Source of the DNA: an uncultured Lentisphaeria bacterium
GTDB lineage: Bacteria; Fidelibacterota; UBA8477; JABMPR01
Assembly: GCA_964469505.1 (NCBI GenBank)
Contig: CAYXZO010000001.1
Location: 37,402-101,401 of the forward strand
Length of the DNA stretch: 64,000 nucleotides
Direction of reading: 5' to 3'
Shown: piece by piece, positions 19,054 to 35,007 of the stretch
How positions within the stretch are numbered: the stretch's first letter is position 1
Layout of the letters: each line of letters starts with the position of its first letter
Notes under the pieces: generated by a model
Seen by the model: the letters and a program-made list of their open reading frames with translations, nothing else
Told to the model about the DNA's origin: nothing
Databases searched by the model: none
Made by a program: the position numbers and the translations under genes

Positions 19054-19905
19054 TTAAGCTCCAGTGGTGACTTGCTTATGGCCTAGATACCAGATCAGTC
19101 CGGCTCCAATCAACATCAGGAAGCACAACACCTGGCCCATGGTGAAATAATTGAACAAAACAAAGCCCAACTGAGGGTCGGGTTGGCGGAAGAATTCAAT
19201 GAAGAATCGTACGAAACCGTAGCCAAAAACATAAGCGCCGGACAGAAAGCCGGGGAAATAATTGCGTTTCCGCAGGTTCCACAGCACGACAAACAGAAAG
19301 ATGCCTTCGAAAAATGCTTCGTAAAGCTGAGACGGATGGCGCAACAATCCATCCCCTGCCAGGGGGAAGTACATCCCGATGGGAGCCGTGGTTACCCGCC
19401 CGTATAATTCTCCGTTGATGAAATTCCCCAAGCGGCCGAAGGTGTAGCCCAGCGGGATTGCCGGGACGAACAAATCAGTTAGCTCAAAAAAGCGCATCCC
19501 ACGTTTACGAACAAAAATAATCCAGGCAACGATGACCCCCAGCACGCCGCCATGGTAAGACATACCGGAAATACCCACAAAACGCCAGTGGCCGCCTATC
19601 TTCGCGAAAGGCATAATAATGCTCAGTGGATGACGCATGAATTCGGAGAAGCCGTAAAACAAAACGTATCCTAACCGGCCGCCAATTATCACTCCCAGCA
19701 CCGCATACATCACCGCGTCGCCCACAAATTCACGTGAATAGGGCAGTTTTTCCTGGGTGATTCGCCGACTAACCAACCAATACACCAGCGTAAAGGCCAC
19801 CAGATACATGGTACCATACCAGCGTAGTGGGAAATTTCCGATGGTGAATATCACCGGGTCCATATGGCTCGGTAAATGTTGCCACCAGTACTTGAAACTG
19901 TTCAT
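19054..19905 (-). CDS. lgt: Prolipoprotein diacylglyceryl transferase
   Basis: 283 aa with the Lgt signature region (…HWRFVGISGMSYHGGVLGVIVAWIIF…) and a conserved FGRLGNFINGELYGR block. Confidence 0.9.
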   Translation of the reverse strand: MNSFKYWWQHLPSHMDPVIFTIGNFPLRWYGTMYLVAFTLVYWLVSRRITQEKLPYSREFVGDAVMYAVLGVIIGGRLGYVLFYGFSEFMRHPLSIIMPFAKIGGHWRFVGISGMSYHGGVLGVIVAWIIFVRKRGMRFFELTDLFVPAIPLGYTFGRLGNFINGELYGRVTTAPIGMYFPLAGDGLLRHPSQLYEAFFEGIFLFVVLWNLRKRNYFPGFLSGAYVFGYGFVRFFIEFFRQPDPQLGFVLFNYFTMGQVLCFLMLIGAGLIWYLGHKQVTTGA

Positions 19906-20173: not shown

Positions 20174-20827
20174 ATGGGTGAATACGATTCTCACCGTCAC
20201 CACCGGCGGTCAATTCGCCTGAAGGGATACAATTACACCCACCCGGGGGCGTACTTTGTTACCATCTGCACATATGAACATAGCTGTTTGTTTGGCCGGG
20301 TAGTTGATGGAAAAATGCGGTTGAATGGATATGGTGAAATGGTGCGGGATGAATGGTTCCGGTCGGTAAATATCCGGTCGGAAATCGAATTATATCCCGA
20401 TGAATTCGTGGTCATGCCCAACCACATTCACGGCATTGTGTGGATTGTGGACAACGTAGGGGCGACCGGCCGGTCGCCCCTACCATCACATTACCCCCCG
20501 CGCGGCCCGGCCAAACATTCGTTGTCATCATTCATCGCCGGGTTTAAATCCGCCGTCACCAAACGCATCAACCGCCATCGCCATACCCCCGGTGGGGTCG
20601 TCTGGCAACGGAATTATTACGAACATATCATTCGCACCGAATTGGCCTTGAATGCCATCCGGCAATACATTCGGGACAACCCCCTGCGCTGGCATTTAGA
20701 TCAATATAACCCCAACGCCACGGGTAACGATCCAATGCCTGACCACCTGGGGCGCTTGACATCGGACAACAGGCATCCTTACACGAAAACACCGAACCTT
20801 TATCCAGGGGAAGAAACCATGCCGTGA
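20174..20827 (+). mobile_element. REP-associated tyrosine transposase (RAYT) / IS200-like Y1 HUH transposase
   Basis: 217 aa with YFVTICTYEH…, the HUH motif NHIHGIVW and C-terminal GGVVWQRNYYEHIIR carrying the catalytic Tyr, all typical of RAYT/IS200 TnpA. It is the only plus-strand gene here, between divergent host operons. Confidence 0.85.
20461..20478. repeat. Perfect 18-bp palindrome GGCGACCGGCCGGTCGCC (REP-like hairpin) located inside the RAYT coding sequence
   Basis: Read directly from the sequence. An imperfect copy lies at 20060-20076 upstream of the gene. Confidence 0.8.
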
Positions 20828-21070: not shown

Positions 21071-21643
21071 CTATTGATCAGATTTTTGTAAACCGTTTCC
21101 TGCTATCCGGACTATTCCCAGCGCAATGATCACCCCCAAAGCCCCCAGCGCCAGAATCCATTTGGTCGAAGCGTAAAGACTGGCTAACGGTACCACACCA
21201 GGGGACACCACCGGGTAGGTGTGAAGCAAATACAAATGGCAGGCATTCTCCAACATGTCCAGGGCCCCGGCCAGCAAAGGAACCGTTAGCAACCAACGGA
21301 ACCAGGGGCGACCATTCCATTGGAAAGGCCGGGCGGTTTTGTATAACCACGTGGTTAGTAACAACGCATACAGCGCCGCGTACAGGTAATCTAACCCCAG
21401 GGCCCACACCCATTGATGGCGCACCTCAGCTGGCAATTTCGCTAAAACCGCAGCGGCTCGCTCACCGGTGAAGGCGAATTGCAAATCCAGCACTCCCACC
21501 CCCAGTTGTCGCTGCAGTTGCCAGTCACCAAGGTAGAGATAGCCCATCACGGGAATAATCAAAATCCACAGGATCAGATAGGCCCATGGTCGCTCGTCGA
21601 ACCAGCGGGCTACTACCAGACCTAAATTCATTTGCCCCGCCAC
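21071..21643 (-). CDS. Hypothetical membrane protein (190 aa, about 5 TM)
   Basis: Hydrophobic ORF overlapping the stop of the upstream enoyl-CoA hydratase gene by 16 nt. No family was recognised. Confidence 0.55.
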   Translation of the reverse strand: MAGQMNLGLVVARWFDERPWAYLILWILIIPVMGYLYLGDWQLQRQLGVGVLDLQFAFTGERAAAVLAKLPAEVRHQWVWALGLDYLYAALYALLLTTWLYKTARPFQWNGRPWFRWLLTVPLLAGALDMLENACHLYLLHTYPVVSPGVVPLASLYASTKWILALGALGVIIALGIVRIAGNGLQKSDQ

Positions 21644-22416
21644 CGGGGTTTGCGCTTGGCCAGAAAGGCTTCCAGCGCTTCACGGCGATCGGCGGTCTCG
21701 ATAATACCCTGGTAGAACTGACTCTCCATTTCCAGGCCTTTCTCCAACATAGGAGTAATTTCCGCCCGTAGGGCCTTTTTGGCCTGCCGCAGGGCCACCG
21801 GCGCTCCTTGCGCCAGTTCCTCCACCAGTTTCTGGAATTCAGCCTCGAATTCTTCTGGCGGGAAAACCCAGTGGATTACCCCGTCTGCCAGCGCTTCGCG
21901 GGCAGAGAAGCGTCGACCAGAGAGAATCCATTTTCCAGCGCGGGAAAGTCCCAGCTTCCAGCGGCTCAGTTGGGTCCCCCCCGCACCGGGAATCACCGCC
22001 AGTCGTACCTCGGTAAAACCCAGTTGGGCCGTCTCTGAGGCCGCTACCAGATCCGCTGCCAGCACGAATTCCAGGCCGCCCCCCAGCGCCGGTCCCTGGA
22101 CCCCCACCACCACCGGTTGCGGCAGTTTCCACCAGGCGAAAACCATGCGCTGGATGTCCTTCACCACTGTCGCCACTTGATCTTCAGGGATTTGACGCCT
22201 CTCTTTCAAATCCGCACCGGCACAAAACGCTTTGCCCGCAGCCGTCACCGCCACTAACCAGACATTATCGTCAGCCGCCAGCGCCGTGGCCATGCTGGTC
22301 AGCTCCGCCACCATTTGTCGACTCAGGGCATTAACCGGGGGATGATTGAGCCGTACCCAGGCCACATGGTTCTCCAGGCGGTATTCCAGGTTTTGATAAG
22401 AATTCTCGGAGCTCAC
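21628..22416 (-). CDS. Enoyl-CoA hydratase/isomerase (crotonase superfamily)
   Basis: 262 aa with …AAGKAFCAGADLKERR… and …GPALGGGLEFVLAADLVAASE… crotonase signatures. Confidence 0.85.
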   Translation of the reverse strand: MSSENSYQNLEYRLENHVAWVRLNHPPVNALSRQMVAELTSMATALAADDNVWLVAVTAAGKAFCAGADLKERRQIPEDQVATVVKDIQRMVFAWWKLPQPVVVGVQGPALGGGLEFVLAADLVAASETAQLGFTEVRLAVIPGAGGTQLSRWKLGLSRAGKWILSGRRFSAREALADGVIHWVFPPEEFEAEFQKLVEELAQGAPVALRQAKKALRAEITPMLEKGLEMESQFYQGIIETADRREALEAFLAKRKPRWRGK

Positions 22417-22766
22417 GGCATCTCCGGCAATTCTGGAGGTAAGGTGAAATCGTCTGGAACTTCCAGCTCAAGACGCAACATGGCCTGACCGTGGGTTTTG
22501 CCCTGGGCGTCATTGAGCAGGCTCTCGCTGCCACCGCCCCCCAAAGAATCATGGAGAATGAAATTCAACGCCAGCAGATTTGGGAGTTCATAGCGTGTAA
22601 CTTCACCTTTCACCAGGGTGCCGAAATGCGCTTTTACCCGTTCAGGGGTTAATTGAGCCACACCTAACTCATAAGCCTCGGGAGTGTAGAATATTACTCC
22701 CACATTGGAATTGGGACCTTTATCACCAGAGCGGGCATGGGCCAATCGTTCCAGTTTCACCTTCAT
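22413..22766 (-). CDS. Small conserved protein of the type that accompanies AtuA/DUF1446 (DUF4387-like)
   Basis: 117-aa ORF overlapping both neighbours by 4 nt. Its size and position match the DUF1446/DUF4387 gene pair. The family assignment is from memory. Confidence 0.55.
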   Translation of the reverse strand: MKVKLERLAHARSGDKGPNSNVGVIFYTPEAYELGVAQLTPERVKAHFGTLVKGEVTRYELPNLLALNFILHDSLGGGGSESLLNDAQGKTHGQAMLRLELEVPDDFTLPPELPEMP

Positions 22767-24139
22767 AAGCTCACCACCTCCACCCGCGGGTTAATGAACT
22801 TTTTGGGAATCAATGCCGGCCAGAAAGCCACAATTTCCTGAGGCTTGGGCCGCCCACCAGCAAAACCGGTGACTCCCGGCGGACCGTTGGTGATTACTGG
22901 CGCCAGCTCCATGCCGAATCGGGCCACTTTTTCCCGGTCCTGATCTCTCACGCTCAGACGCACCACCACCTCGTTGATCTGCGGCGGCAGGGGCACAATG
23001 TCTCCATGGCAGGAAGAAACTCCCAGGAATTCGGTATGGGTGGCTTCGTATTCATACCCGGCCCGGGCCAGGCGTTCCCAGATGATTTCTGCCACTTTCC
23101 TGGCTTTGCTGTAAGCCCGGGGACCGGAAACGGTCAGTTGGCCGGATGCTTTATAGCCCGCAAAATAGCTCAATGAAACTTTGTAGAATTCCGTGGGAGC
23201 ACGGCCTTTCACGCCGGTCACCCGCACCCGATCCTGGCTCTCCTCCTCCAGTCGCACGGTGGTGAAGTCCACCACCACCTCCGGGGAGATGTAATTCTGC
23301 GGATCACCCATTTCATACAGCATCTGTTCGGCAACGCTCATCCGATTTACCAGCCCGCCCGTGCCGGGGTGTTTGGTGATGCGAAACTCTCCGCTGGCTT
23401 CCATCTCGATTATGGGATAACCAATTCCAGCGTAATCGGGCACTTCCCACCAGCGGGAGTAATTGCCACCAGTGCACTGGGCGCCGCATTCGGTGATATG
23501 TCCAGCCACGGTACCGGCGGCCAGTTTGTCGTAATCGTCCAGAGACCAGCCGAAATGGTAGATCATGGGGCCCAGGGCCAACCCCGGGTCAGTCACGCGC
23601 CCTGTGAGGACTATCTGCGCCCCCTGGTCCAGGGCCTGGGCCACCGGCTCCGCCCCCAGGTACACGTTGGCCGAAAGGACCTTATCCCGATAGGGTTCGA
23701 ACGACTCACCGGTCTCCATATTGCGGAAATCCACGCCTTGAGCCATGAGTTCACCCAGGCGGTCCAGAATATCATCACCCGTCACCAGCCCCAGTTTCAG
23801 ATCGCGGATGTTCTGCTTCCGTGCCGTTTCAAACAAAGCTTCCGCCGCCGCCGGAGCATTCACGCCCCCAGCGTTGGCGATCACTTTGATATCCCTTTCC
23901 AGGAGAGTAGGCAGCAGCTTACCCATCAGAGGCACAAAGTCCCGGGCATAGCCCCGTTTAGGGTCCTTTAACTTTTGCCGCTGCATGATGGAGAGTGTCA
24001 CTTCAGCCAGGTAATCCATAGTGAGGTAATCCAGCGGCCCTCTCTCCACCAGGTGGATCGGGGCATCCACCGAATCACCCCAAAACCCCTGGCCGTTGCC
24101 AATGCGGATTGCTCGTTTAGTTCCCCCAGTGTCTGGCAT
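22763..24139 (-). CDS. AtuA-like protein (acyclic terpene utilisation family, DUF1446)
   Basis: 458-aa ORF starting MPDTGGTKRAIRIGNGQGFWGDSVDAPIHLVERGPLDYLTMDYLAEVTLSIM…, which resembles the AtuA N-terminus. It lies in an operon with a carboxyltransferase and an enoyl-CoA hydratase. Confidence 0.7.
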   Translation of the reverse strand: MPDTGGTKRAIRIGNGQGFWGDSVDAPIHLVERGPLDYLTMDYLAEVTLSIMQRQKLKDPKRGYARDFVPLMGKLLPTLLERDIKVIANAGGVNAPAAAEALFETARKQNIRDLKLGLVTGDDILDRLGELMAQGVDFRNMETGESFEPYRDKVLSANVYLGAEPVAQALDQGAQIVLTGRVTDPGLALGPMIYHFGWSLDDYDKLAAGTVAGHITECGAQCTGGNYSRWWEVPDYAGIGYPIIEMEASGEFRITKHPGTGGLVNRMSVAEQMLYEMGDPQNYISPEVVVDFTTVRLEEESQDRVRVTGVKGRAPTEFYKVSLSYFAGYKASGQLTVSGPRAYSKARKVAEIIWERLARAGYEYEATHTEFLGVSSCHGDIVPLPPQINEVVVRLSVRDQDREKVARFGMELAPVITNGPPGVTGFAGGRPKPQEIVAFWPALIPKKFINPRVEVVSL

Positions 24140-24230
24140 AGCTAAGCTTCCTGTATTTCTTTCTCTTTATTTGTAAGAACGTTTACCACGCGGCGCAATT
24201 TGCGTCACTTCCCGCTCGAAGGAACGCTGG

Positions 24231-25913
24231 TTAAACCTGCAAAACGCCGAAGTTGGGTGCCGGTAGCTTGGTCTGGTGCGCGCACAGCTCCAAAGAACGA
24301 ATTAATACTTCCCGCGTGTCTTCCGGATTGATGATTTCATCCACCCACAAGCGGGCCGCGGCGTAGCGGGGGTCACTTTGTTTGCGATAGACCTCTTTGA
24401 TTTCTTCTAAAATCTTGTTTTTGGTTTCCTCGTCGGGATTTTTCATCTTGGCCAGCCGGATTTGGGCTAAGGTATTGGCCGCTTGAGCACCTCCCATCAC
24501 GGCAATACGCGCCGTGGGCCAGGCATACATGAAGCGCGGTTCATAGGCGCGGCCGCTCATGGCGTAATTACCGGCACCGTAACTACCACCAATTACCACT
24601 GTAATTTTCGGGACAATGGAATTAGCCACGGCCTGCACCATTTTGGCTCCGTCCTTGGCAATGCCCTCCCATTCGGCTTCCCGTCCCACCATAAAACCGT
24701 TTACGTCATGTAGGAAAATCAAGGGAATGCGGTCCTGATTGCAGTTCATGATGAAACGGGCGGCTTTATCGGCGGAATCGTTGTAAACCACTCCCCCCAT
24801 CTGGATTCTACCGGTGGCCGTCTTTACCGGAATGCGCTGATTGGCCACGATTCCCACCGCGAAACCGCCGATCCTGGCATGACCACACAGAATTGTTTTA
24901 CCATACTCAGCTTTGTATTCTTCAAAAACCGAATCATCCACGATCCGCCCGATGATTTCCCGCATGTCGAACGACCCGCCATCAGGGGGTACGATGCCAT
25001 ACAAATCTTCCGCCGGCCAGCGGGGTGGCTTGGCCTCGATGCGATTGAAAGGAGCTTTCTCAGGCGGTGGCAGAAGACTTACCAGCTTGCGGACCCGTTC
25101 AAGAGCCGCTTTATCATTGGGTTCATGGTAGTCGGCGGTTCCCGAGATGGCGTTGTGGGTGGTGGCTCCTCCCAGAGTTTCGATATCGATATCCTGCCCG
25201 ATGGCGGCTTTTACCAGCGCAGGACCGGCCAGGAACAGGCTGGAGCCTTCCACCATGATGAACTTGTCGCACATTACCGGCAGATACGCGCCACCGGCCA
25301 CACAGGGCCCCATAACTACAGCGATCTGGGGCACCCCCATAGCGGATAACCTGGCATTATTGAAAAAGATGCGTCCGAAATGGGCCTCATCGGGGAATAC
25401 CTGATCCTGCATGGGGAGAAAAACCCCTGCCGAATCCACCAGGTAGATTATCGGTAGGTGGTTTTCCAGGGCTATACGCTGGGCCCGGAGGGTTTTCTTG
25501 AGGGAAACCTCGAAATAAGCCCCGGCTTTCACGGTGGCGTCATTGGCCATGATTACCACATCCCGGCCAGCAACTTTGCCGATACCGGTGACTACTCCAG
25601 CCGCCGCTGGAGAGCCCCATTCAGGATACATTTCCCAGGCGGCGAACAACCCGAATTCGAAAAACGAGGTGCCGGGATCGATTAGCTTGGCAATGCGTTC
25701 TCGCGCTGTGAGTCGATTTTTGGCATGTTGTCGATCGATGGCTTTCGGTCCACCTCCCCGGCGTAACTCGCGGCGTTCTTCTTCCAGGGCGGCCACCAAT
25801 TCTTGCATGTAGCGACGGTTGGTTTCGAAACTGGTCCGCGGCCACTTTTCACTGGAGGTGCCGCAGATTGCTACAGGCGCAGGACTAACCTGGGGATTAA
25901 GATTCTCTGACAT
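24231..25913 (-). CDS. Acyl-CoA carboxylase carboxyltransferase (beta) subunit (methylcrotonyl-/geranyl-/propionyl-CoA carboxylase beta family)
   Basis: 560 aa with two carboxyltransferase half-domains (…VANQRIPVKTATGRIQMGGVVYNDSADKAARFIMNCNQDRIPLIFLHDVNGFMVG…). Confidence 0.88.
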   Translation of the reverse strand: MSENLNPQVSPAPVAICGTSSEKWPRTSFETNRRYMQELVAALEEERRELRRGGGPKAIDRQHAKNRLTARERIAKLIDPGTSFFEFGLFAAWEMYPEWGSPAAAGVVTGIGKVAGRDVVIMANDATVKAGAYFEVSLKKTLRAQRIALENHLPIIYLVDSAGVFLPMQDQVFPDEAHFGRIFFNNARLSAMGVPQIAVVMGPCVAGGAYLPVMCDKFIMVEGSSLFLAGPALVKAAIGQDIDIETLGGATTHNAISGTADYHEPNDKAALERVRKLVSLLPPPEKAPFNRIEAKPPRWPAEDLYGIVPPDGGSFDMREIIGRIVDDSVFEEYKAEYGKTILCGHARIGGFAVGIVANQRIPVKTATGRIQMGGVVYNDSADKAARFIMNCNQDRIPLIFLHDVNGFMVGREAEWEGIAKDGAKMVQAVANSIVPKITVVIGGSYGAGNYAMSGRAYEPRFMYAWPTARIAVMGGAQAANTLAQIRLAKMKNPDEETKNKILEEIKEVYRKQSDPRYAAARLWVDEIINPEDTREVLIRSLELCAHQTKLPAPNFGVLQV

Positions 25914-27132
25914 TGGCTAAACGTTGCTCCATATCTTCTTGAAAATCATGACCTGTGTCGAACCCCACGATACGGTAGCGAATACGCCCTTGACCATCAA
26001 TAATCAGGGTAGTCGGTATTCCCTGAACGCCAAACACCATGGCGGCTCCATTATGAAAGGCTACGGGGAAGGTGTAACCATTCTCCTTGATAAAAGGCCG
26101 TACTTTAGCCGTATCCCGATCTACGGAAGCCGCCACAAAAACCAGGTCTGCATCCTGGGCATGGGTTTGATAGAATTTTTGAAATTCAGGTAGTTCTCGC
26201 TTGCAGGGCCCGCACCAGGTAGCCCAGAAATCCAGAATCAGGATTTTGCCTTTAAGTTTCGCGGGTGAAATCTCCTGTCCGGCAAAAGTAGTCATGGAAA
26301 AATCAGGGGCCGGCTCGTTAATCAATTCACCTAGTAGCTCCTCACGCCGTTTTTCCCGAAATGAGTCTCGTAACTGGCGCAGGTAAGTTACGGCATCAGC
26401 TTCGGGATGCAGCTTAGTATAGGTCGCGGCCGTCAGGTGCGCCAGATCAGCTTGCTGGGGCGCCAGTCCCCAGGCCTGGACAAAATCAGCCAACGCCTTT
26501 TCAGCTTGTCCCCGTTTCAGATAAATCTGTCCACGCCGTTTCAAGGTAGCGGAAAAAGGCATATAACTTATGGCCTTCCGATAGTCCTCCAGCGCTCGAT
26601 CGATGTCTCCCGTAAGTTCATAAACCAGTCCCCTGGTATCCAAAAAGGTAGCAGCCGATTCCACAAAATTACTTCGGGTAGTATCCAAGACATACAGGCT
26701 ATCAACGGCAAAGCTTGCCAATTTGAGGGCAGTCTTCAGGTTAAAAGTATCTTGAGCTGTACGCCAGGCAAAAGCGTTGGCAGCTTGAACTCGATCTTCC
26801 AAGCGCAAAATATGCCCCGGCGGGTAGGTCATAATTATTTGTGCCAGTTTATCAATGGGCTCAGGGTCTCGTTCATTTAGAGCACGGGTGAAAATCAGAT
26901 TCCACGAAGTAATGGCCCGGGGATCGTATTGATAATCATCCAGCAATTCCAGGGCAAAAGGTTTCCAATCCTGGTATGACATTGAGGTGCGCAACGTGTC
27001 GTTGAGCACCCGTAAACGGGCGGGCGAAGGTTCCGGTTTTTTACTGCAGGCCGCTACCAGAAGCACTCCTGCCACCAGCAACCACCCGCGAAACTTAATC
27101 TTCATCATTATTTCCTTTCTGTTGAAGCCCAA
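25897..27132 (-). CDS. TPR-repeat lipoprotein with a C-terminal TlpA-like thioredoxin domain (thiol-disulfide oxidoreductase)
   Basis: Signal peptide with lipobox (LLVAAC). TPR-like helical repeats. C-terminal …ILILDFWATWCGPCKRELPEF… with a CxxC redox motif. The start codon is uncertain (several Met near the N-terminus). Confidence 0.8.
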   Translation of the reverse strand: MGFNRKEIMMKIKFRGWLLVAGVLLVAACSKKPEPSPARLRVLNDTLRTSMSYQDWKPFALELLDDYQYDPRAITSWNLIFTRALNERDPEPIDKLAQIIMTYPPGHILRLEDRVQAANAFAWRTAQDTFNLKTALKLASFAVDSLYVLDTTRSNFVESAATFLDTRGLVYELTGDIDRALEDYRKAISYMPFSATLKRRGQIYLKRGQAEKALADFVQAWGLAPQQADLAHLTAATYTKLHPEADAVTYLRQLRDSFREKRREELLGELINEPAPDFSMTTFAGQEISPAKLKGKILILDFWATWCGPCKRELPEFQKFYQTHAQDADLVFVAASVDRDTAKVRPFIKENGYTFPVAFHNGAAMVFGVQGIPTTLIIDGQGRIRYRIVGFDTGHDFQEDMEQRLANVRES

Positions 27133-27286
27133 AGGTAGGTCACCATTTCAGCCCAAATTAGCGCAGTAGAGGTTAATGACAAAAAGAATCGCCACCATAC
27201 TCAGGACAAAAGAATTCCATTGATTCATCGCAAAAGGAGGGAAACCTTGTAAAACGGCCCTGAAACGAAGTACTTTCCCTATTACC

Positions 27287-28498
27287 ATGGTATATCAGCG
27301 ATTATTATTCAAACTCATCTTATCCAGTATTATTTATCAATTCTTCCTCAGCCAAACTATGGCCTGCCGTATGTGGGCCGCGGCCCGCTACGATACCGCT
27401 GCGTTGAGTATTACTTATCTACAGGCTGAAATAAGCGAGTTACGGCGACAGGGTGGAGGAGATAATTACTGGCCATACGACAACCTAGACGGTTGGAGTC
27501 TGGCGGGCTATGTCGCTGCAGATAGCGCCTGGATAACCCGTTCCGCGATTCCCGCCGCTCAGGATTCCAACTATGCCACCCAAAGTGCTTTTTTACTCCA
27601 GGCGGTTCCGACGAATCTATACCTGGGCCATGTGCGCACAGCCACCAGCGGAGCTCAAAACGTTCCTAATCCACATCCGTTCACTTTTCGGGATAGTTCG
27701 GGCCAAGTCTATCTTCTGGCTCATAACGGAACACTTGACAAAGAAACTTTACGCGATCTGATCGGGACCGATTGGTTGCAGCAACATCCACCTCAAACTT
27801 TTGGTCATGGCGCCTGGGACGATACCGGTTGGCCCTACGTGGTGGATTCGGAACTTCTTCTGCTCTGGATTATGCAGAATATAGAATCCGTTCAGGGAAT
27901 GGTTCTCGAAGGGATGCGGCAAGCACTTCAGGTTTTGGAAGAAATAGAGCCTTGGGCGGATAAAAACATCATTTTCGGTGATTCTGAGCGTTGGTACGCT
28001 TATCGCTCACCTGGTGGTCCGGATCTGTATTATCTGCCCGCCGGATACTCGGGACATTACGCCGTTATGAGCACTCCTCCGGATACTGGAGTCGCCGCTG
28101 CCTTGCCCTGGACTGAGATCCCCGACGGTGCTTTGGTGTATTTCAACGCCAACGAAGGGCCAGTGGTGCTCACTGATTTCGCCTCTCCAGTGGCGGCAGC
28201 TTCAACCAGTATTGTTTCCAACGAAGACATAGAATTAACCATCTATCCCTCCCCGACAAACGGCCCCCTTTCCATCAGGTGGGCAATCCCCGACAATGGA
28301 CCTGCGGAGTTCACCCTTTATTCTTTGCTGGGTTATAAGCTGCTCATAATAACAACCAATAGGATTAGTGAACAGGGACAATTGGAATTAGATCTTACTA
28401 ACCTCCATCGGGGGAAGCTATTACCGGCCGGGGTCTATATAATTCAACTTCGCACCACCCGTAGGGTAATTTCGCGAAGTATCGTAATTACAAGATAG
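27287..28498 (+). CDS. Secreted class-II glutamine amidotransferase-like Ntn-hydrolase (YafJ/EgtC-like) with a T9SS C-terminal sorting domain
   Basis: N-terminal signal peptide ending …LSQTMA followed by CRMWAAARY…, which resembles the MCRxLAY Ntn Cys1 motif. The C-terminal roughly 80 aa (…ELTIYPSPTNGPLSIRW…GVYIIQLRTTRRVISRSIVITR) match the Por secretion tail. Confidence 0.7.
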   Translation: MVYQRLLFKLILSSIIYQFFLSQTMACRMWAAARYDTAALSITYLQAEISELRRQGGGDNYWPYDNLDGWSLAGYVAADSAWITRSAIPAAQDSNYATQSAFLLQAVPTNLYLGHVRTATSGAQNVPNPHPFTFRDSSGQVYLLAHNGTLDKETLRDLIGTDWLQQHPPQTFGHGAWDDTGWPYVVDSELLLLWIMQNIESVQGMVLEGMRQALQVLEEIEPWADKNIIFGDSERWYAYRSPGGPDLYYLPAGYSGHYAVMSTPPDTGVAAALPWTEIPDGALVYFNANEGPVVLTDFASPVAAASTSIVSNEDIELTIYPSPTNGPLSIRWAIPDNGPAEFTLYSLLGYKLLIITTNRISEQGQLELDLTNLHRGKLLPAGVYIIQLRTTRRVISRSIVITR

Positions 28499-29023: not shown

Positions 29024-30709
29024 CTACCAATCGAAATATATTTTCAAACGAGCGGCCAAATCCCGACTTTCGAACTCATACGTCAATTCTAGTTGCCCCA
29101 CCCATAAACGAGTAAACCAGAAATCTATGCGACTGCCTATACTGGTTGTCGTGTTCCAGGGACTGAGCAGAAAAGGGGTATTTTCGTCCAGCGTCCTGTC
29201 TCTCAAATCATAATTGTCCGTTTCATGACTTCCCAGTCCGGAGCCTTTATCTAAGCGTGAAACTTCCAAATGCCATAACCCTCGAGATCCGAGCCACCGA
29301 TCGTAAAAAATTACAAAATGCCTGCTGTTGGGCCCAAATCGATATCCCAGGGGGTGACCACCGGAGGTGAAACTTAACAAAGAATCATCATGGGTAAATA
29401 CCCAAGGACGGGCAAGAGTGAACTCGCCTCCCAGGTCCCAGCGCGCTGAAGAAGCAACGTACCACAACCCGCCTTGGAAGATGAATTTATTACCCCACCA
29501 AGGTTTCAGCAATTCCAACCAGTTTAATTCGTCCCACAGAAAGGTTCCATATATCTCCCATCCCTTGAAATTGCGCCAGCGTCCCTCGAGAGCCATTAAC
29601 ACATTATCCCGGTCGCCTTGGTTGTGTTCTTCCGACCAGAATATGTTCACTGGTAGGAGGTAACCTAATTCGAGAAAGCGCCGGGCATAAACCACCATTT
29701 CAGTGAAAGCGATGGTAGTGGAGGGAGTCAAATCCCATTCGAATCGGTGGGCCGCCAGGCGTTTATAGGGGACCAATGAATCTCGTCGGGAAGGATCAAA
29801 CGGTACCAAGGCCCCTTGTATGCTCTGAAAACGAAAACCGCGATAGCTGGTCTGGATTGTGGCAAAGGGGTAGGCTAGAGGTTCAGCACTCAAAATTACG
29901 GGATTTAGCGGAGAGAAACCCCATTGCAGCGGTCGTTTCTCGAGGCCGATGGTAAAGCGGGGCCCATGGTATATTAGCCCCGCATAACTTCGATCCCACA
30001 CCAACCAGGGCAGGCTGCTATCCTGTAGAGTAAACCCCTGCTTATGTTCAGGAGGTAGAGGAAGATCAGAATCGGATTTTTGGGAAAGGCGATAAAGCTG
30101 GTAATCGCTGTAAAAGCTGATACCCGGTAACCACTGACCGGCTATTCTTAGTCGATCCCAATAAAAGGGACGCGCTTGGCCATTGATTATTTCTACTAGA
30201 AATGATTCCCGCCAATCGGCCCAAAGGTGTAAATCATCGCTGGCGAAGGTCCCCAAATGAGGTTCAGGCGTACGAAGTCCCTGCTGCAAATCCCAGGCTT
30301 TTAACATCTTTTGCCAGGCAGCTTTGCGCCAAGGACCACTAATTCCAGATTCCCAGGTGCTCCAATCAAACTCCGCTTGAAACCGGGATAAAAGATGGTG
30401 TTCAAACGGATCAAGCTGGTTTCGGTATCGGCCCAGTTCGTTTAAGGCTTTTAAAACCTCACTCCATGAGTAGGGTCTGTTGCCAATATTCAATTTTGAG
30501 ATTCGGCCCCGTACCATTTCCTGCCTTATAAAAAAGCCAGCTGGATGGGTAAAATCCAAAGGGACGTCCTGTCCCTGTGCACTGATTGCAATGAAGAAAA
30601 AGAGAAGCGGGATTCTGGAGCTGACTAACCCTGAATTGGGCAAAGTATTCCTGTAATGGAAAACCCGATGCAAAACTGCTCGAAGCGGTCGTAATTGTCG
30701 CATATGCAT
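29024..30709 (-). CDS. Putative outer-membrane protein (signal peptide; C-terminal aromatic residue), possibly a capsule-assembly (Wzi-like) or porin-like barrel
   Basis: 561 aa with N-terminal …RIPLLFFFIAISAQGQ signal and C-terminus …LELTYEFESRDLAARLKIYFDW. Trp/Tyr-rich and beta-strand-like. It is first in the polysaccharide locus. The Wzi assignment is speculative. Confidence 0.5.
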   Translation of the reverse strand: MHMRQLRPLRAVLHRVFHYRNTLPNSGLVSSRIPLLFFFIAISAQGQDVPLDFTHPAGFFIRQEMVRGRISKLNIGNRPYSWSEVLKALNELGRYRNQLDPFEHHLLSRFQAEFDWSTWESGISGPWRKAAWQKMLKAWDLQQGLRTPEPHLGTFASDDLHLWADWRESFLVEIINGQARPFYWDRLRIAGQWLPGISFYSDYQLYRLSQKSDSDLPLPPEHKQGFTLQDSSLPWLVWDRSYAGLIYHGPRFTIGLEKRPLQWGFSPLNPVILSAEPLAYPFATIQTSYRGFRFQSIQGALVPFDPSRRDSLVPYKRLAAHRFEWDLTPSTTIAFTEMVVYARRFLELGYLLPVNIFWSEEHNQGDRDNVLMALEGRWRNFKGWEIYGTFLWDELNWLELLKPWWGNKFIFQGGLWYVASSARWDLGGEFTLARPWVFTHDDSLLSFTSGGHPLGYRFGPNSRHFVIFYDRWLGSRGLWHLEVSRLDKGSGLGSHETDNYDLRDRTLDENTPFLLSPWNTTTSIGSRIDFWFTRLWVGQLELTYEFESRDLAARLKIYFDW

Positions 30710-31137: not shown

Positions 31138-32208
31138 CTACTCCAACCCGAAATGATTTTTTAAAATCGCTGCAATCCGAGAGGCGGCTTGCCCATCTCC
31201 GTAATGCGGATGCCATTTCTTGGCTCTGGGAGGATTATTGATCAATTGGATAAGACGGTCCCAATCTGAAAAGACCAGAGTATTCCAGCCATCGGCCACG
31301 GTTTCTTTCCATTCAGTTTCAGTCCTGAGTGTAATACAAGGCACTCGATGAAGATAGGCTTCTTTCTGGACACCGCCAGAATCGGTGAGAATCACCGCGG
31401 CGTTCTTTTCAAGTTTGAGCATATCCAGATACCCTACTGGATCTAAAAAGCGAATGGTGGGATGATCAGCCAATTTCTCAAGCGGAATCAGCTTCCGGGT
31501 ACGAGGATGAACCGGAAACAGAACCGGTTTTTCAGCCTTCTCCAAAGCATGCAATAGTATTGACAAGCGTTTGGAATCGTCGGCGTTTACCGGGCGATGG
31601 ATCGTCATCAAAACATAGCCCCCGGCAGACAATCCGTATTTGTCCAGAATCTTGCTTTTTGTCTCTGCTACTTGCGAATAGTGATACAGGGCATCCACCA
31701 TAACATCGCCGGTCAGGTAGACTCCGCGCTCCAGCCCTTCTCTACGGAGATTATCTACCGCTTCCTGGCTGGGGCAGAATAGAAATTCAGCCAGAACATC
31801 AGTGACTACCCGATTAATCTCCTCCGGCATTCTTCGATTGTAAGAGCGCAAGCCGGCCTCTACGTGGGCAACTGGTATGTGTAGTTTCGCCGCAGCAAGA
31901 GTCCCTCCAATGGTGGCATTGGTGTCCCCATATACTAGAACAAGATCCGGCTTCTCTTTAAGCAATACTTTCTCAACCCGTACCAGGGTGGCGGCTGTTT
32001 GCTCGGCTTGCGTGCCAGATCCCACTTCCAGGTCGTAATCCGGGCGGGGGATTTCCATTTCATCGAAAAATATGCGGGCCATCTGGGGATCATAATGTTG
32101 GCCGGTGTTGACCATTATCTCTTGAAAGCCAGCTTTCCGTAGGGCTCGGGAAACCACGCTAGCTTTTATGAATTGTGGACGGGCGCCGGTGATGGAAACT
32201 ATCTTCAT
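31138..32208 (-). CDS. wecB: UDP-N-acetylglucosamine 2-epimerase (non-hydrolysing)
   Basis: 356 aa beginning MKIVSITGARPQFIKASVVSRAL…, with …VLVYGDTNATIGGTLAAAKLHIPVAHVEAGLRSYNRRMPEEINR… (canonical WecB). Confidence 0.9.
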   Translation of the reverse strand: MKIVSITGARPQFIKASVVSRALRKAGFQEIMVNTGQHYDPQMARIFFDEMEIPRPDYDLEVGSGTQAEQTAATLVRVEKVLLKEKPDLVLVYGDTNATIGGTLAAAKLHIPVAHVEAGLRSYNRRMPEEINRVVTDVLAEFLFCPSQEAVDNLRREGLERGVYLTGDVMVDALYHYSQVAETKSKILDKYGLSAGGYVLMTIHRPVNADDSKRLSILLHALEKAEKPVLFPVHPRTRKLIPLEKLADHPTIRFLDPVGYLDMLKLEKNAAVILTDSGGVQKEAYLHRVPCITLRTETEWKETVADGWNTLVFSDWDRLIQLINNPPRAKKWHPHYGDGQAASRIAAILKNHFGLE

Positions 32209-32257: not shown

Positions 32258-33472
32258 TCATCTCTCTGGTTGCCAAACCGTGTAATTCTTGCCTTTGAGG
32301 AAATCCACCCAACCCATGATCATGGCAGCCAACATTCCCGCCGCGTAGCTTAGTCTTTTACCGCCAGGGGTTAATCTTTGATAAACATCATTTCTACGGA
32401 CAATGAAAAAACCGAATAGTTCAAAAGATAGCATAAAAAAGAAAGCTATTTTTGATAAAACTCCCGGCGCGGCAAGAGTGGTTAGCATCAATAATTGGTA
32501 CCAAAGTGGTATTAACCAGCGTAATAACTTATGGCTAATAAATATGAACTTAAATTGAATGGGAGCTGTACTTATCTCTTTTCTGAAAGCCCATATTGAA
32601 GTTAAGCTGCGTGCCAGGATTCGCCGGTGTCGTCTGTATTCCACATCAATTCTACCGGTAGATTTCTCGTAGCACACTGCGGAGGGTTGATACACACTTT
32701 TATATCCTTTAAGTACCACGAACACCGGAACCATCAAGTCATCCATGGCAAAATCAGGTAAGAATTCATAGCATTCTCTGCGCACTGCGTAAATGCTGCC
32801 ATTGGCACCGATGGTTGAGAAAAATTGGCTTTCCTGTTTTTTCAGCCATCGTTCCCATGACCAGTATTGGGCCTCTATATCATCATCATATCGATCGTTA
32901 TCATTAGGAATAAGTTTTAATTCGCCACAGACAGCACCGACATTAGGATCTGCAAACGGTTTTACTAATTCCTTAAGCGCATTTTTTTCGTACATGCTAT
33001 TTGCATCGGAAAAAACCAGTATAGGGCTATTGCTTAGCTTCACGGACTCATTACGGGCAATAATTTTACCTGCGTGCGTGTCCGTTTTTATTAGCTTTAC
33101 CGCTGGAAAGAATCCTTCAACAATTTGATTTGTCCGGTCAGTGGACCCATCCGTTGCCACATATATATTTAGCTTTTCTCTAGGATAATTTAACTCTAGC
33201 GTATTTCTTAACTTTTTTTCAAGGATTTCTTCTTCGTTGTATGCTGCGATAAGGAAATCCATTTCTGGTGTTTCGTCGGACGCGCTAACCTTGGCGCCAT
33301 TTTTTTTACGTGTTTTTCTAATGGATTGCGCTAAGTATATCACCATTGGATATACAAGTATCGGGTAAGCCATAAACAATCCGATAATGAATACTAGCGC
33401 GGAAATCATTTCTGGAATTAGTTGATTTTTCTCATCAAATTCGTTAACCACTCTCTGTGGTGATTTATGCAA
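32258..33472 (-). CDS. Family-2 glycosyltransferase with flanking transmembrane segments (synthase-type, HasA/PgaC/chitin-synthase-like)
   Basis: 404 aa with an N-terminal TM, a GT2 core (…FLIAAYNEEEIL…YVATDGSTD…VFSDANS…) and C-terminal TM helices. The gene is AT-rich. Confidence 0.75.
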   Translation of the reverse strand: MHKSPQRVVNEFDEKNQLIPEMISALVFIIGLFMAYPILVYPMVIYLAQSIRKTRKKNGAKVSASDETPEMDFLIAAYNEEEILEKKLRNTLELNYPREKLNIYVATDGSTDRTNQIVEGFFPAVKLIKTDTHAGKIIARNESVKLSNSPILVFSDANSMYEKNALKELVKPFADPNVGAVCGELKLIPNDNDRYDDDIEAQYWSWERWLKKQESQFFSTIGANGSIYAVRRECYEFLPDFAMDDLMVPVFVVLKGYKSVYQPSAVCYEKSTGRIDVEYRRHRRILARSLTSIWAFRKEISTAPIQFKFIFISHKLLRWLIPLWYQLLMLTTLAAPGVLSKIAFFFMLSFELFGFFIVRRNDVYQRLTPGGKRLSYAAGMLAAMIMGWVDFLKGKNYTVWQPER

Positions 33473-33552: not shown

Positions 33553-35007
33553 TTATCTGGTAATCTGATAGATCAGCAACAATAGTGATGTTATATTTCC
33601 TATGATCGTGGTATAAGTGGATATTCTTTTTAAGTAGTAGTCAAAATCGCGGTAAGGAGTCCTGGGGACCCATATAAAATCGCCAGATTCAATCTTATAG
33701 TTATTTTTCCCGTCTGTCATATCTATCCACGCTCGTGATTTACTCTTTATTAAGTATACCTTTTCTTTAGCTCTCTTGCCTAATCCTCCCGCTTGCGCGA
33801 TATAATATTTATAATCAGCGCCAGGCTTATACTTTATATACCCCGGCGTCATTACCTGCCCGTACACATAAATCATATCACTCTTTGTGGGAATGATTAT
33901 CACATCGCCATCTTTCACAATGAAAGTGCTGCTCGGGGAGTTTGGATTCTTCAAATCCCTGAAATCGATTGAAGCAATCGCATGGAGGTTCCTAAGAAGA
34001 TTGTCCGCGATGAAGTTCAAAGAGTCCTGAGGATCCACATCCGCCATTCGCTCCATTAGCAATAAATCTATGTTAGTGCTCAATAAATTAACTCTAAATG
34101 TCCTGTCTCGGTCCTTATACAGCGAACTATATATGCCGTAATTAGCGAACGCAAATGGATCTCGAATCAATTCGGCATTTAACAAATCCGCATTTTCCCT
34201 GAAGCCACCAGCTTTATTTATCACTTCCCACAACGTCGTGTTGTCTTTGGAAATAAAAATATACCCAGGCCTATATACCTCGCCTAGTACCAGAACCTTG
34301 TAATCTCTCCTGTTAGTTTCATCAGCCACGATCCGAATTCTATCACCTCTTTTTAAAACGAAATTTAGACTGTCAACAGGTATCCTAATTGTTCTACTTT
34401 CTTGTCCGTTATAGCTAAGCCTTTCTATAACTGCATATTTTATATCATCGTAAGATTCATTAACCCCCCGCGCAAAAAGCAATGCATCAGACAATTTGTC
34501 GCCATCAATGAACTGGAATTTGCCAGGCTTATTCACCGCGCCTTCCACCTCGATGAAACTCCTCTCCATATCTAGAGGAGGAAATATTATAACATCACCA
34601 TCTCTTAAATAAGGATTGTAGCGATAATCCGCGGTGAGCCTGAATTTTTTTAAGTCAATTATCTGCTTACTACCATCCTGGTGAACTAATTTTATGCCAC
34701 GTAACGCATAGTCGCCAAACATTCGCACGACTTTATTGTAATCACTGTAAGTTTTGGCCGAGCTTAGCATTTCGTTCTTAGCTTTATTAAAAATTCTTGT
34801 AACAAACTCATCTACCCGCTCATTAACAAAAGCCCTGAATGATCCATTGGCAATGAATTCGCCTCCAATTGTCACACTTATCGTATTTTCACTCGCAATA
34901 TCTAGCGAACTACTGCCTATTACTTGAGAATAACAAACGACCGAACTACCCAAAAGGAACAATATAGAGAAAACCAAAGGCACAATTATCGAACGCTTCT
35001 CATTCAT
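33553..35007 (-). CDS. Polysaccharide export protein (Wza-like; Poly_export plus multiple SLBB domains)
   Basis: 484 aa with a signal peptide and repeated soluble-ligand-binding beta-grasp motifs (…LRDGDVIIFP…, …LKRGDRIRIV…, …VKDGDVIIIPT…, …IESGDFIWVP…). AT-rich. Confidence 0.75.
   Translation of the reverse strand: MNEKRSIIVPLVFSILFLLGSSVVCYSQVIGSSSLDIASENTISVTIGGEFIANGSFRAFVNERVDEFVTRIFNKAKNEMLSSAKTYSDYNKVVRMFGDYALRGIKLVHQDGSKQIIDLKKFRLTADYRYNPYLRDGDVIIFPPLDMERSFIEVEGAVNKPGKFQFIDGDKLSDALLFARGVNESYDDIKYAVIERLSYNGQESRTIRIPVDSLNFVLKRGDRIRIVADETNRRDYKVLVLGEVYRPGYIFISKDNTTLWEVINKAGGFRENADLLNAELIRDPFAFANYGIYSSLYKDRDRTFRVNLLSTNIDLLLMERMADVDPQDSLNFIADNLLRNLHAIASIDFRDLKNPNSPSSTFIVKDGDVIIIPTKSDMIYVYGQVMTPGYIKYKPGADYKYYIAQAGGLGKRAKEKVYLIKSKSRAWIDMTDGKNNYKIESGDFIWVPRTPYRDFDYYLKRISTYTTIIGNITSLLLLIYQITR

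Follow-up and report, generated by a model that had tools for sequence, protein, structure and literature searches.

A class II glutamine amidotransferase-type Ntn hydrolase with a predicted signal peptide ending at its nucleophile and a type IX secretion tail in an uncultured Neomarinimicrobiota bacterium

We analysed a 64,000-nucleotide stretch of contig CAYXZO010000001.1 (assembly GCA_964469505.1; hereafter, the window) and found a plus-strand gene whose product appears to be an exported N-terminal nucleophile (Ntn) hydrolase of the class II glutamine amidotransferase (GATase) type. Its ATG at position 27287 is the first possible start in the open reading frame (ORF) and gives a product of 403 residues. 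This precursor consists of a signal peptide (residues 1–26), an Ntn domain (27–298) and a type A C-terminal domain (CTD) of the type IX secretion system (T9SS; 316–403) (Table 1).

Class II (PurF-type) Ntn domains need Cys as residue 1, its thiol serving as the nucleophile and its free α-amine as the general base, and cytosolic relatives, which start MC, expose this residue by methionine removal. We propose that the precursor would be exported via Sec by a classical 26-residue signal peptide and that a cut at T-M-A↓C (↓, cleavage point) would make Cys27 residue 1 of the mature chain. Signal peptidase I (SPase I) would be the most economical cutter, and the enzyme would be active only once exported. 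The 272-residue Ntn domain would then fold in the periplasm, and the type A CTD would pass the enzyme through the T9SS to the cell surface or medium. There, it would hydrolyse the γ-amide of free glutamine or of γ-glutamyl-X to yield glutamate and ammonia or an amine, a nitrogen or amino-acid scavenging role in an uncultured marine Neomarinimicrobiota (SAR406) bacterium. We regard this explanation as a whole (Sec export, T-M-A↓C cut, T9SS sorting and glutamyl-amide hydrolysis) as probable; SPase I as the cutter, the occurrence of T9SS export and the substrate are the parts of it that we infer.

The catalytic domain and the sorting tail

Residues 27–298 almost certainly adopt the Ntn class II fold. 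The domain scored 41.1 bits with Pfam GATase_4 (PF13230), for which the gathering score is 23. An AlphaFold2 model of the precursor, built from 22 homologues (mean predicted local distance difference test score, pLDDT, 84.1), placed a helix at residues 2–21, a strand at 28–34 right after Cys27, a disordered linker at 303–312 and a seven-strand C-terminal sandwich at 316–401; domain 27–298 has the four layers (α-β-β-α) of an Ntn fold. A Foldseek search against solved structures returned EgtC (E value 3.6e-13, template modelling score on target 0.74–0.77), with PurF, 3mdn, GlmS and 1te5 ranked below it. When a mature-domain profile was compared by hhalign with YafJ, GlmS and PurF from the Escherichia coli MG1655 record, YafJ was recovered with a probability of 97.6, and the best sequence matches of the family profile in the PDB were 1te5 (E value 1.4e-10) and 3mdn (E value 3.9e-9). 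A first-pass annotation of this DNA had likened C-R-M-W-A-A to the Cys1 motif of class II GATase-type Ntn hydrolases; the above-threshold PF13230 match, the YafJ probability and the near-invariant catalytic motifs described below bear this out, and the Ntn-hydrolase fold, which had been put forward as a check on that reading, was confirmed by profile, hhalign, model and Foldseek. The three E. coli proteins all start MC, in keeping with the same annotation's description of cytosolic members that carry Cys1 after Met.

The residues that handle glutamine in the characterised relatives are retained. In the hhalign comparisons, the region of residues 114–122 pairs with GIGHVRYPTAG of PurF and GIAHTRWATHG of GlmS, so that Arg117 falls at the position of PurF/GlmS Arg73 and Thr120 at that of Thr76. 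Asn147-Gly148 aligns to Asn101-Gly102 of PurF and Asn98-Gly99 of GlmS, while Asp187 corresponds to PurF Asp127 and GlmS Asp123, the D-S-E motif pairing with SDSEIL (PurF), TDTEVI (GlmS) and TDSEKAF (YafJ). The HxR, HNG and DSE columns are 94–99 % conserved over 186 relatives (H115, 185; R117, 184; N147, 178; G148, 185; D187, 174). We take it as established by structural work on PurF and GlmS that the Arg binds the α-carboxylate of glutamine, the Asp its α-amine, and that Asn-Gly forms the oxyanion hole.

Since Arg117, Asp187 and Asn147-Gly148 are all conserved, hydrolysis of a glutamyl γ-amide would be the most likely reaction, and since neither an acceptor nor a synthase is paired with it, the domain would act as a hydrolase only. 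Glutamine or a γ-glutamyl compound could well be the substrate, a proposal on which we are evenly divided and which we make because the residues for the glutamyl head group are kept and because EgtC, the nearest characterised relative, hydrolyses a γ-glutamyl amide. A clade-specific insertion of residues 163–183, which is a gap in the YafJ alignment, precedes the DSE motif. It is modelled at a pLDDT of 93–97, its P169, T171 and W182 are invariant in the 22-sequence alignment, and it may be a candidate leaving-group or specificity loop. In the same alignment, the linker region varies in length and takes up large domain insertions in homologues of ~600 residues.

We consider it highly probable that the protein is exported with a T9SS tail. 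The CTD contains the motifs YPSPTNGPLSI and LPAGVYIIQL and a terminal RSIVITR and matched NCBIfam TIGR04183 over residues 319–401 (27.8 against a cut-off of 23). A CTD hidden Markov model made from homologues hit the 403-residue protein with an E value of 1.1e-17 and matched no other ORF in the window. The C-terminal T9SS tail of ~80 residues predicted in the first-pass annotation is thus upheld by TIGR04183 and by the C-terminal β-sandwich of the model. The tail is common among relatives: in the profile search described below, 58 of the 150 best cluster representatives end in one, and other representatives carry dockerin, IPTL-CTERM, LamG, DUF2341, β-helix, BACON or CarboxypepD_reg modules. 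The whole clade is extracytoplasmic, by whichever sorting system the host has. Distant homologues occur in unrelated contexts, namely a polysaccharide locus (L005) and a locus in which PorV, together with a sigma factor, adjoins the gene (L010).

The junction before Cys27 and the enzyme that cuts it

The N-terminus of the 403-residue protein reads MVYQRLLFKLILSSIIYQFFLSQTMA↓CRMWAAAR. Read heuristically, it has the n/h/c anatomy of a Sec signal together with a −3/−1 site: an n-region MVYQRLLFK with basic residues R5 and K9, an h-region LILSSIIYQFFL with a 12-residue hydrophobic core (residues 10–21) and a polar c-region SQTMA that ends with T at −3 and A at −1. A −3/−1 scan returned two sites at a normal distance from the h-region, 26↓27 (T/A) and a weak 24↓25 (Thr at −1), and we assigned the site to 26↓27 from the −3/−1 rule and comparative data. 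The first-pass annotation had likewise ended the signal peptide at SQTMA with Cys next; this is what the DNA encodes, and the scan agrees. The only canonical SPase I site predicted in the c-region is directly before Cys27, which is also the sole Cys of the 403-residue protein and, judging from the sequence, very probably becomes the N-terminal nucleophile of the mature chain.

Homologues place the nucleophile at the same kind of junction. A word-indexed search yielded 35 homologues at 30–40 % identity, all metagenomic, one of which carries the name 'class II glutamine amidotransferase [Fidelibacterota]'. Cys27 is invariant in all 22 aligned homologues, each time after an N-terminal hydrophobic leader. 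When the mature domain served as the profile in an exhaustive search clustered at 50 % identity, 2829 representatives were returned at E≤1e-3, 960 at E≤1e-10 and 192 at E≤1e-30. Junctions were counted in the 120 representatives with an assignable N-terminus from the best 150; most of these representatives carry a signal peptide or surface-type domains. Of their nucleophiles, 113 are Cys and 7 Ser, and ~58 directly follow a signal peptide. In 51 representatives, [A/G/S]↓Cys lies 3–10 residues past the hydrophobic core, and [A/G]↓Ser occupies the same junction in 7; Pro↓Cys was counted in 12, A-[D/E]↓Cys in 10 and H-[N/E]↓Cys or N↓Cys in ~38. Where A, G or S precedes the nucleophile, every sampled −3 residue belongs to the set A, G, S, T, V, I and L, which fits the SPase I requirement.

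The near clade was surveyed by scanning GTDB, one genome per species, with the close alignment as query. This returned 28 loci with a best identity of 45 %, nearly all from metagenome-assembled genomes (MAGs) of Candidatus Neomarinimicrobiota. Among 27 close homologues, the residue before the nucleophile is Pro in 12 and A, G or S in 13, and the nucleophile is Ser in 2. At almost every related locus, the frame continues open upstream, and its translation gives a hydrophobic leader that runs up to the nucleophile. Some Neomarinimicrobiota MAGs hold paralogue pairs of the exported enzyme (L018 with L025, and L024 with L041), and in the GMC6.metabat2.199 genome one paralogue has a Cys nucleophile and the other Ser.

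Two cutters have to be weighed, and they differ in nothing else: either leaves Cys27 as residue 1 after export. We lean towards SPase I because T-M-A↓C is a textbook site for this enzyme. Bacterial SPase I substrates with verified sites hardly ever have Cys between P10 and P10′ (PMC2638155), so a Cys conserved at +1 in this family is a functional signature. The alternative, serious but in our view less probable, keeps the same enzyme and destination and has Cys27 unmasked by intramolecular autoproteolysis, through an N-to-S acyl shift at X-Cys27; the hydrophobic N-terminus would then be an export signal or a transient membrane anchor that the enzyme itself cuts off. Such processing has precedents in the superfamily, as the propeptides of Bacillus subtilis PurF and of glutamate synthase are self-processed. 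The junction of the window protein (T at −3, A at −1, polar c-region) speaks against autoproteolysis, as does the restricted −3 residue in 58 representatives, which SPase I predicts and autoproteolysis alone does not need.

Several points weigh against the SPase I and T9SS reading. Verified SPase I sites avoid Pro from P3 to P1′ (PMC2638155), yet Pro stands at −1 in 12 of the 27 close homologues and in 12 representatives, in leaders near-identical to the Ala versions (e.g. VLPLFP↓C). Some leaders, such as MFKALCIRGFVFFILVLPLFP↓C, lack a small-residue site altogether, and part of the Pro versions offer no alternative one; the latter proteins most likely release themselves by the N-to-S acyl shift typical of Ntn precursors. 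Ten members with A-[DE]↓C and ~38 with H-[NE]↓C or N↓C add to the case that the family evidently can self-cleave, and SPase I may therefore be dispensable for the window protein too. The 26↓27 cut and the active-site placement of Cys27 are themselves predictions from cleavage rules, secondary structure and fold scores, and a lone thiol would be vulnerable in an oxidising compartment. As for the tail, the Por_Secre_tail (PF18962) match over residues 319–400 scored exactly at its cut-off (27.0 against 27.0), and no T9SS component appeared among the ~20 larger window ORFs scanned, no systematic search of the window having been made.

The H-[N/E]↓Cys or N↓Cys junctions lie past a signal peptide and a 10–40-residue propeptide, or at positions 233–1099 in proteins of 1.4–3.8 thousand residues, where only self-cleavage could free the nucleophile; the H-[N/E]↓Cys members would thus have to self-cleave. 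The giant proteins, some of them from Bathyarchaeota, carry the domain after DUF2341/LamG-type modules, with the Cys at 701 (P0080), 761 (P0123), 670 (P0149), 1099 (P0160), 233 (P0125) or 428 (P0134). It is preceded by H-[NE] in 5 of the 6 (T-N in P0123), e.g. ...LHLNENYEHE↓CRLWGMI, and the domain looks like a self-cleaving module that would split its protein. Returning to the window protein, the proposal in the first-pass annotation that signal peptidase cleavage unmasks the Cys stands insofar as the only canonical site is predicted directly before Cys27; as to the identity of the cutter, the homologues with Pro at −1 and the self-cleaving branches qualify it.

A Cys at +1 of a signal peptide could instead be lipidated and non-catalytic, with SPase II cutting after the action of Lgt to leave a lipid-anchored surface protein. 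The canonical lipobox is L-[AS]-[GA]-C (PMC9360617), and many relatives match it, with L at −3 and A or G at −1 (e.g. L-S-A↓C); Lgt is encoded in the window, so the host has a lipoprotein pathway. The window protein itself, however, has T-M-A-C after a polar c-region, which does not fit the lipobox, while a neighbouring gene has a true LLVAAC. Nine relatives have Ser at exactly this position and an otherwise complete active site, the equivalent Cys lies deep inside large proteins in others, and Cys27 heads strand 1 of the Ntn fold with the other catalytic residues all conserved. Since Ser can act as an Ntn nucleophile but offers no site for lipidation, the conserved feature at +1 is the nucleophile and not a lipidated residue. 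On the strength of the Ser variants, the internal copies and the non-lipobox T-M-A-C, we rejected the lipoprotein reading as very unlikely. Lipoprotein predictors may be misled by this family, many members of which have L-x-[AG]↓C for catalysis and not for lipidation.

The Ser variants (P0046, P0061, P0062, P0067, P0096, P0102, P0117 and P0161) keep all other catalytic motifs and have Ser directly after the signal peptide (e.g. TQA↓SRIWAVI). They are mostly 730–1090 residues long with a T9SS tail or dockerin, the tail being present in 6 of the 8 checked. Two more occur in GTDB genomes (loci L038 and L041).

The start codon also bears on the junction. Public calls of the identical protein differ, giving 403 residues (P0036), 379 residues starting MACRMW (P0001) or 375 residues starting MWAAAR (P0037); both short calls drop the signal peptide, and the 375-residue call drops the catalytic Cys as well. 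Were translation to begin at Met25 (379 residues) or Met29, the leader would be untranslated and the protein cytoplasmic. The NCBI, JGI and Logan gene callers do give the two short versions, and no obvious Shine-Dalgarno sequence is present at either candidate start. We nevertheless judge a short form highly improbable: the frame is open from 27287 with the anatomy of a signal peptide, nearly all related loci keep the hydrophobic leader up to the nucleophile, a T9SS domain would be purposeless without Sec export, and JGI also holds the 403-residue call. A start at Met25 would moreover leave Ala-Cys after Met removal, and one at Met29 would remove the Cys. Public annotation often strips the signal peptide in this way, by a later start, and so hides the exported nature of the family.

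Gene neighbourhood

The gene is monocistronic and flanked by opposite-strand genes. The 154-bp intergenic region that it shares with the divergent upstream gene is presumed to be the promoter region; a sigma-70 promoter scan of this region and a terminator scan 3′ of the gene gave no match, the consensus being uninformative for this phylum.

The divergent gene encodes a lipoprotein with a LLVAAC↓SKK lipobox and a thioredoxin domain. Of the 27 loci with a shared neighbourhood, counting the window, 25 have this gene in divergent orientation at a distance of 0–1 genes; 3 of the 25 are copies from the window's own species (L011–L013). In the loci with conserved adjacency, both the enzyme and the lipoprotein are <40 % identical to the window's copies. 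The association is suggestive of a possible redox partner for the lone catalytic thiol, but the adjacency may equally be inherited synteny and is absent from distant family members.

On a wider reading, which is speculative and in our judgement rather unlikely as a whole, the window protein would belong to a large and so far undescribed extracytoplasmic class II GATase radiation spanning bacteria and archaea, in which three interchangeable routes unmask the nucleophile: SPase I at A/G↓Cys and A/G↓Ser, self-cleavage of a signal anchor or one-residue stub at P↓C and A-[DE]↓C, and self-cleavage at H-[NE]↓C in giant surface proteins. The SAR406 enzyme would then be a surface glutaminase or γ-glutamyl hydrolase acting on dissolved organic nitrogen, its thiol kept reduced by the tetratricopeptide repeat (TPR)-thioredoxin lipoprotein.

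The layout around the gene also bears on a toxin/immunity role, which the first-pass annotation had listed as an option. An interbacterial toxin, for instance a deamidase with a cognate immunity protein, would be secreted and could have a Cys-nucleophile amidase fold, as this protein does, and some bacterial effectors are glutamine deamidases. The gene, however, is monocistronic and lies between housekeeping genes on the opposite strand; no small ORF resembling an immunity gene adjoins it, and its neighbourhood is conserved chromosomal synteny in many Neomarinimicrobiota genomes and not a variable island. The residues for a free amino-acid α-amine and α-carboxylate are also kept, pointing to small glutamyl substrates over protein glutamines. 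We therefore set this option aside as extremely improbable.

We looked for a function in the operon context, such as an EgtC/EgtE-like pairing, and rejected it. The genes that flank close homologues encode cytoplasmic Aminotran_5 and α/β-hydrolase proteins without signal peptides; these genes are absent from the window, where the enzyme gene is monocistronic. Upstream in the window are acyl-CoA metabolism genes and downstream a cluster for the export and biosynthesis of polysaccharide, neither of which gives a clue to a pathway. Upstream of the thioredoxin gene is a cluster of AtuA, carboxyltransferase and enoyl-CoA hydratase genes of the acyclic terpene or leucine catabolism type (region 21628..27132, minus strand). 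A gene for a 561-residue protein, the C-terminus of which resembles those of outer-membrane β-barrels, is convergent with the enzyme gene and heads the polysaccharide cluster. The window has a marked strand bias: of 41 ORFs with 200 residues or more, ~34 run on the minus strand. On the plus strand, the enzyme gene, the transposase-like ORF and an alpha-amylase gene (58224..60047) are the only sizeable genes that no longer minus-strand ORF overlaps.

Table 1. Positions of the enzyme gene, its parts and other features in the window
Feature	Position	Strand	Basis or context
Whole gene, 403 codons and stop	27287..28498	+	ORF list, Pfam/NCBIfam matches, 35 homologues
Sec-type signal peptide (predicted), residues 1–26	27287..27364	+	Sequence reading, −3/−1 scan, homologue leaders, helix 2–21 in model
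Cys27 (TGC), predicted N-terminal nucleophile	27365..27367	+	Conservation, strand 1 from residue 28
Catalytic Ntn (α-β-β-α) domain, GATase_4/YafJ-EgtC type, residues 27–298	27365..28180	+	Profile match, fold
Motif G-H-V-R-T-A-T-S-G, residues 114–122	27626..27652	+	hhalign with PurF/GlmS
His146-Asn147-Gly148, predicted oxyanion hole	27722..27730	+	hhalign
Clade-specific insertion W-L-x-x-H-P-P-Q-T-[FY]-G-x-G-x-W-x-x-x-G-W, residues 163–183	27773..27835	+	Alignment gap vs YafJ
Asp187-Ser188-Glu189	27845..27853	+	hhalign
Flexible linker, residues 299–315	28181..28231	+	pLDDT <50 at 303–312
Type A T9SS C-terminal sorting domain, residues 316–403	28232..28495	+	Pfam, NCBIfam, model
Intergenic region shared with divergent thioredoxin-lipoprotein gene, 154 bp	27133..27286	.	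Gene layout
Divergent neighbour lipoprotein, TPR repeats and TlpA/ResA-like thioredoxin domain (WCGPC)	25897..27132	−	Pfam AhpC-TSA, Redoxin, TPR
Lgt, prolipoprotein diacylglyceryl transferase	19054..19905	−	Window ORF scan
IS200/Y1-type (RayT-like) transposase homologue	20174..20827	+	Pfam Y1_Tnp 29.7 bits
561-residue protein, N-terminal hydrophobic segment, C-terminus ...KIYFDW	29024..30709	−	No Pfam match
UDP-GlcNAc 2-epimerase	31138..32208		Polysaccharide cluster
GT2	32258..33472		Polysaccharide cluster
SLBB/Wza-like	33553..35007		Polysaccharide cluster
Two UDP-sugar dehydrogenases, then epimerase	up to 38868		Polysaccharide cluster

Significance and comparison with known systems

Class II GATase domains are textbook cytoplasmic enzymes, and here the same chemistry appears to have been moved outside the cell. 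In this branch, the cut that would activate the enzyme falls at the export signal, and an otherwise dangerous amidase would remain inactive until exported. The fold, the catalytic logic and the T9SS tail are already known, as are Ntn hydrolases that are exported first and mature afterwards. Full-text searches found no paper on a secreted or signal-peptide-bearing class II GATase and none linking type IX secretion with a GATase cargo, and YafJ, GATase_4 and PF13230 received incidental mentions only. We likewise found no description of an exported class II GATase branch, of its mixture of SPase-type and self-cleaving junctions or of its Cys/Ser interchange. The first-pass annotation had called a secreted member of the family unusual, which holds for the literature but not for nature: the branch comprises 192 clusters at E≤1e-30 and 960 at E≤1e-10, occurs for the most part in uncultured marine bacteria and extends over T9SS, dockerin, IPTL-CTERM and archaeal surface-protein contexts. 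The interchange of Cys and Ser at +1, together with the two kinds of junction, makes it a natural system for studying the evolution of Ntn activation. If the substrate is glutamine or a γ-glutamyl compound, the enzyme would represent an uncounted extracellular route of nitrogen remineralisation in the abundant, uncultured SAR406.

The closest characterised relative is EgtC, the ergothioneine amidohydrolase of Mycolicibacterium smegmatis (PDB 4zfj, 4zfk and 4zfl), which is cytoplasmic, gains its N-terminal Cys by Met removal, lacks a signal peptide and CTD and is encoded in an egt operon. The window protein differs in its ~20-residue HPPQT...GW insertion and in having no egt genes nearby, and its similarity to the EgtC sequence is not HMMER-significant (E value 0.13). 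YafJ (E. coli b0223), PA1307 (1te5) and SPO2029 (3mdn) belong to Pfam GATase_4, as the window protein does, and share its DGW, HxR, NxHPF, HNG and DSE motifs, but they are cytosolic, function-unassigned proteins of ~255 residues that start MC and lack export signals. The glutaminase domains of PurF, GlmS, AsnB and GltS are fused to a synthase and channel ammonia in the cytoplasm, whereas the window protein has no acceptor domain. The self-processing PurF precursor is classified as MEROPS C44.

Some Gram-negative penicillin V acylases have a signal peptide directly before the catalytic Cys, and Gram-negative penicillin V acylases (choloylglycine hydrolase family), γ-glutamyltranspeptidase (GGT), penicillin G acylase (PGA) and N-acyl homoserine lactone (AHL) acylases are all, like the window protein, exported Ntn amidohydrolases. 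GGT, an extracytoplasmic γ-glutamyl hydrolase, is its functional analogue. In PGA-type Ntn hydrolases, the nucleophile is unmasked only after export (PMC5474475). GGT (Thr) and PGA (Ser) are, unlike the window protein, activated by internal autoproteolysis between two subunits, and GGT and the penicillin and AHL acylases represent other Ntn families that have neither the class II GATase motifs nor a T9SS tail.

In the papers searched, the T9SS cargo described consists mainly of proteases, glycosidases, adhesins and nucleases. Type A cargo (TIGR04183/PF18962) combines an N-terminal Sec signal with a β-sandwich of ~80 residues, as does the window protein, which also shares the YPNP-like, GxY and terminal basic motifs of such tails.

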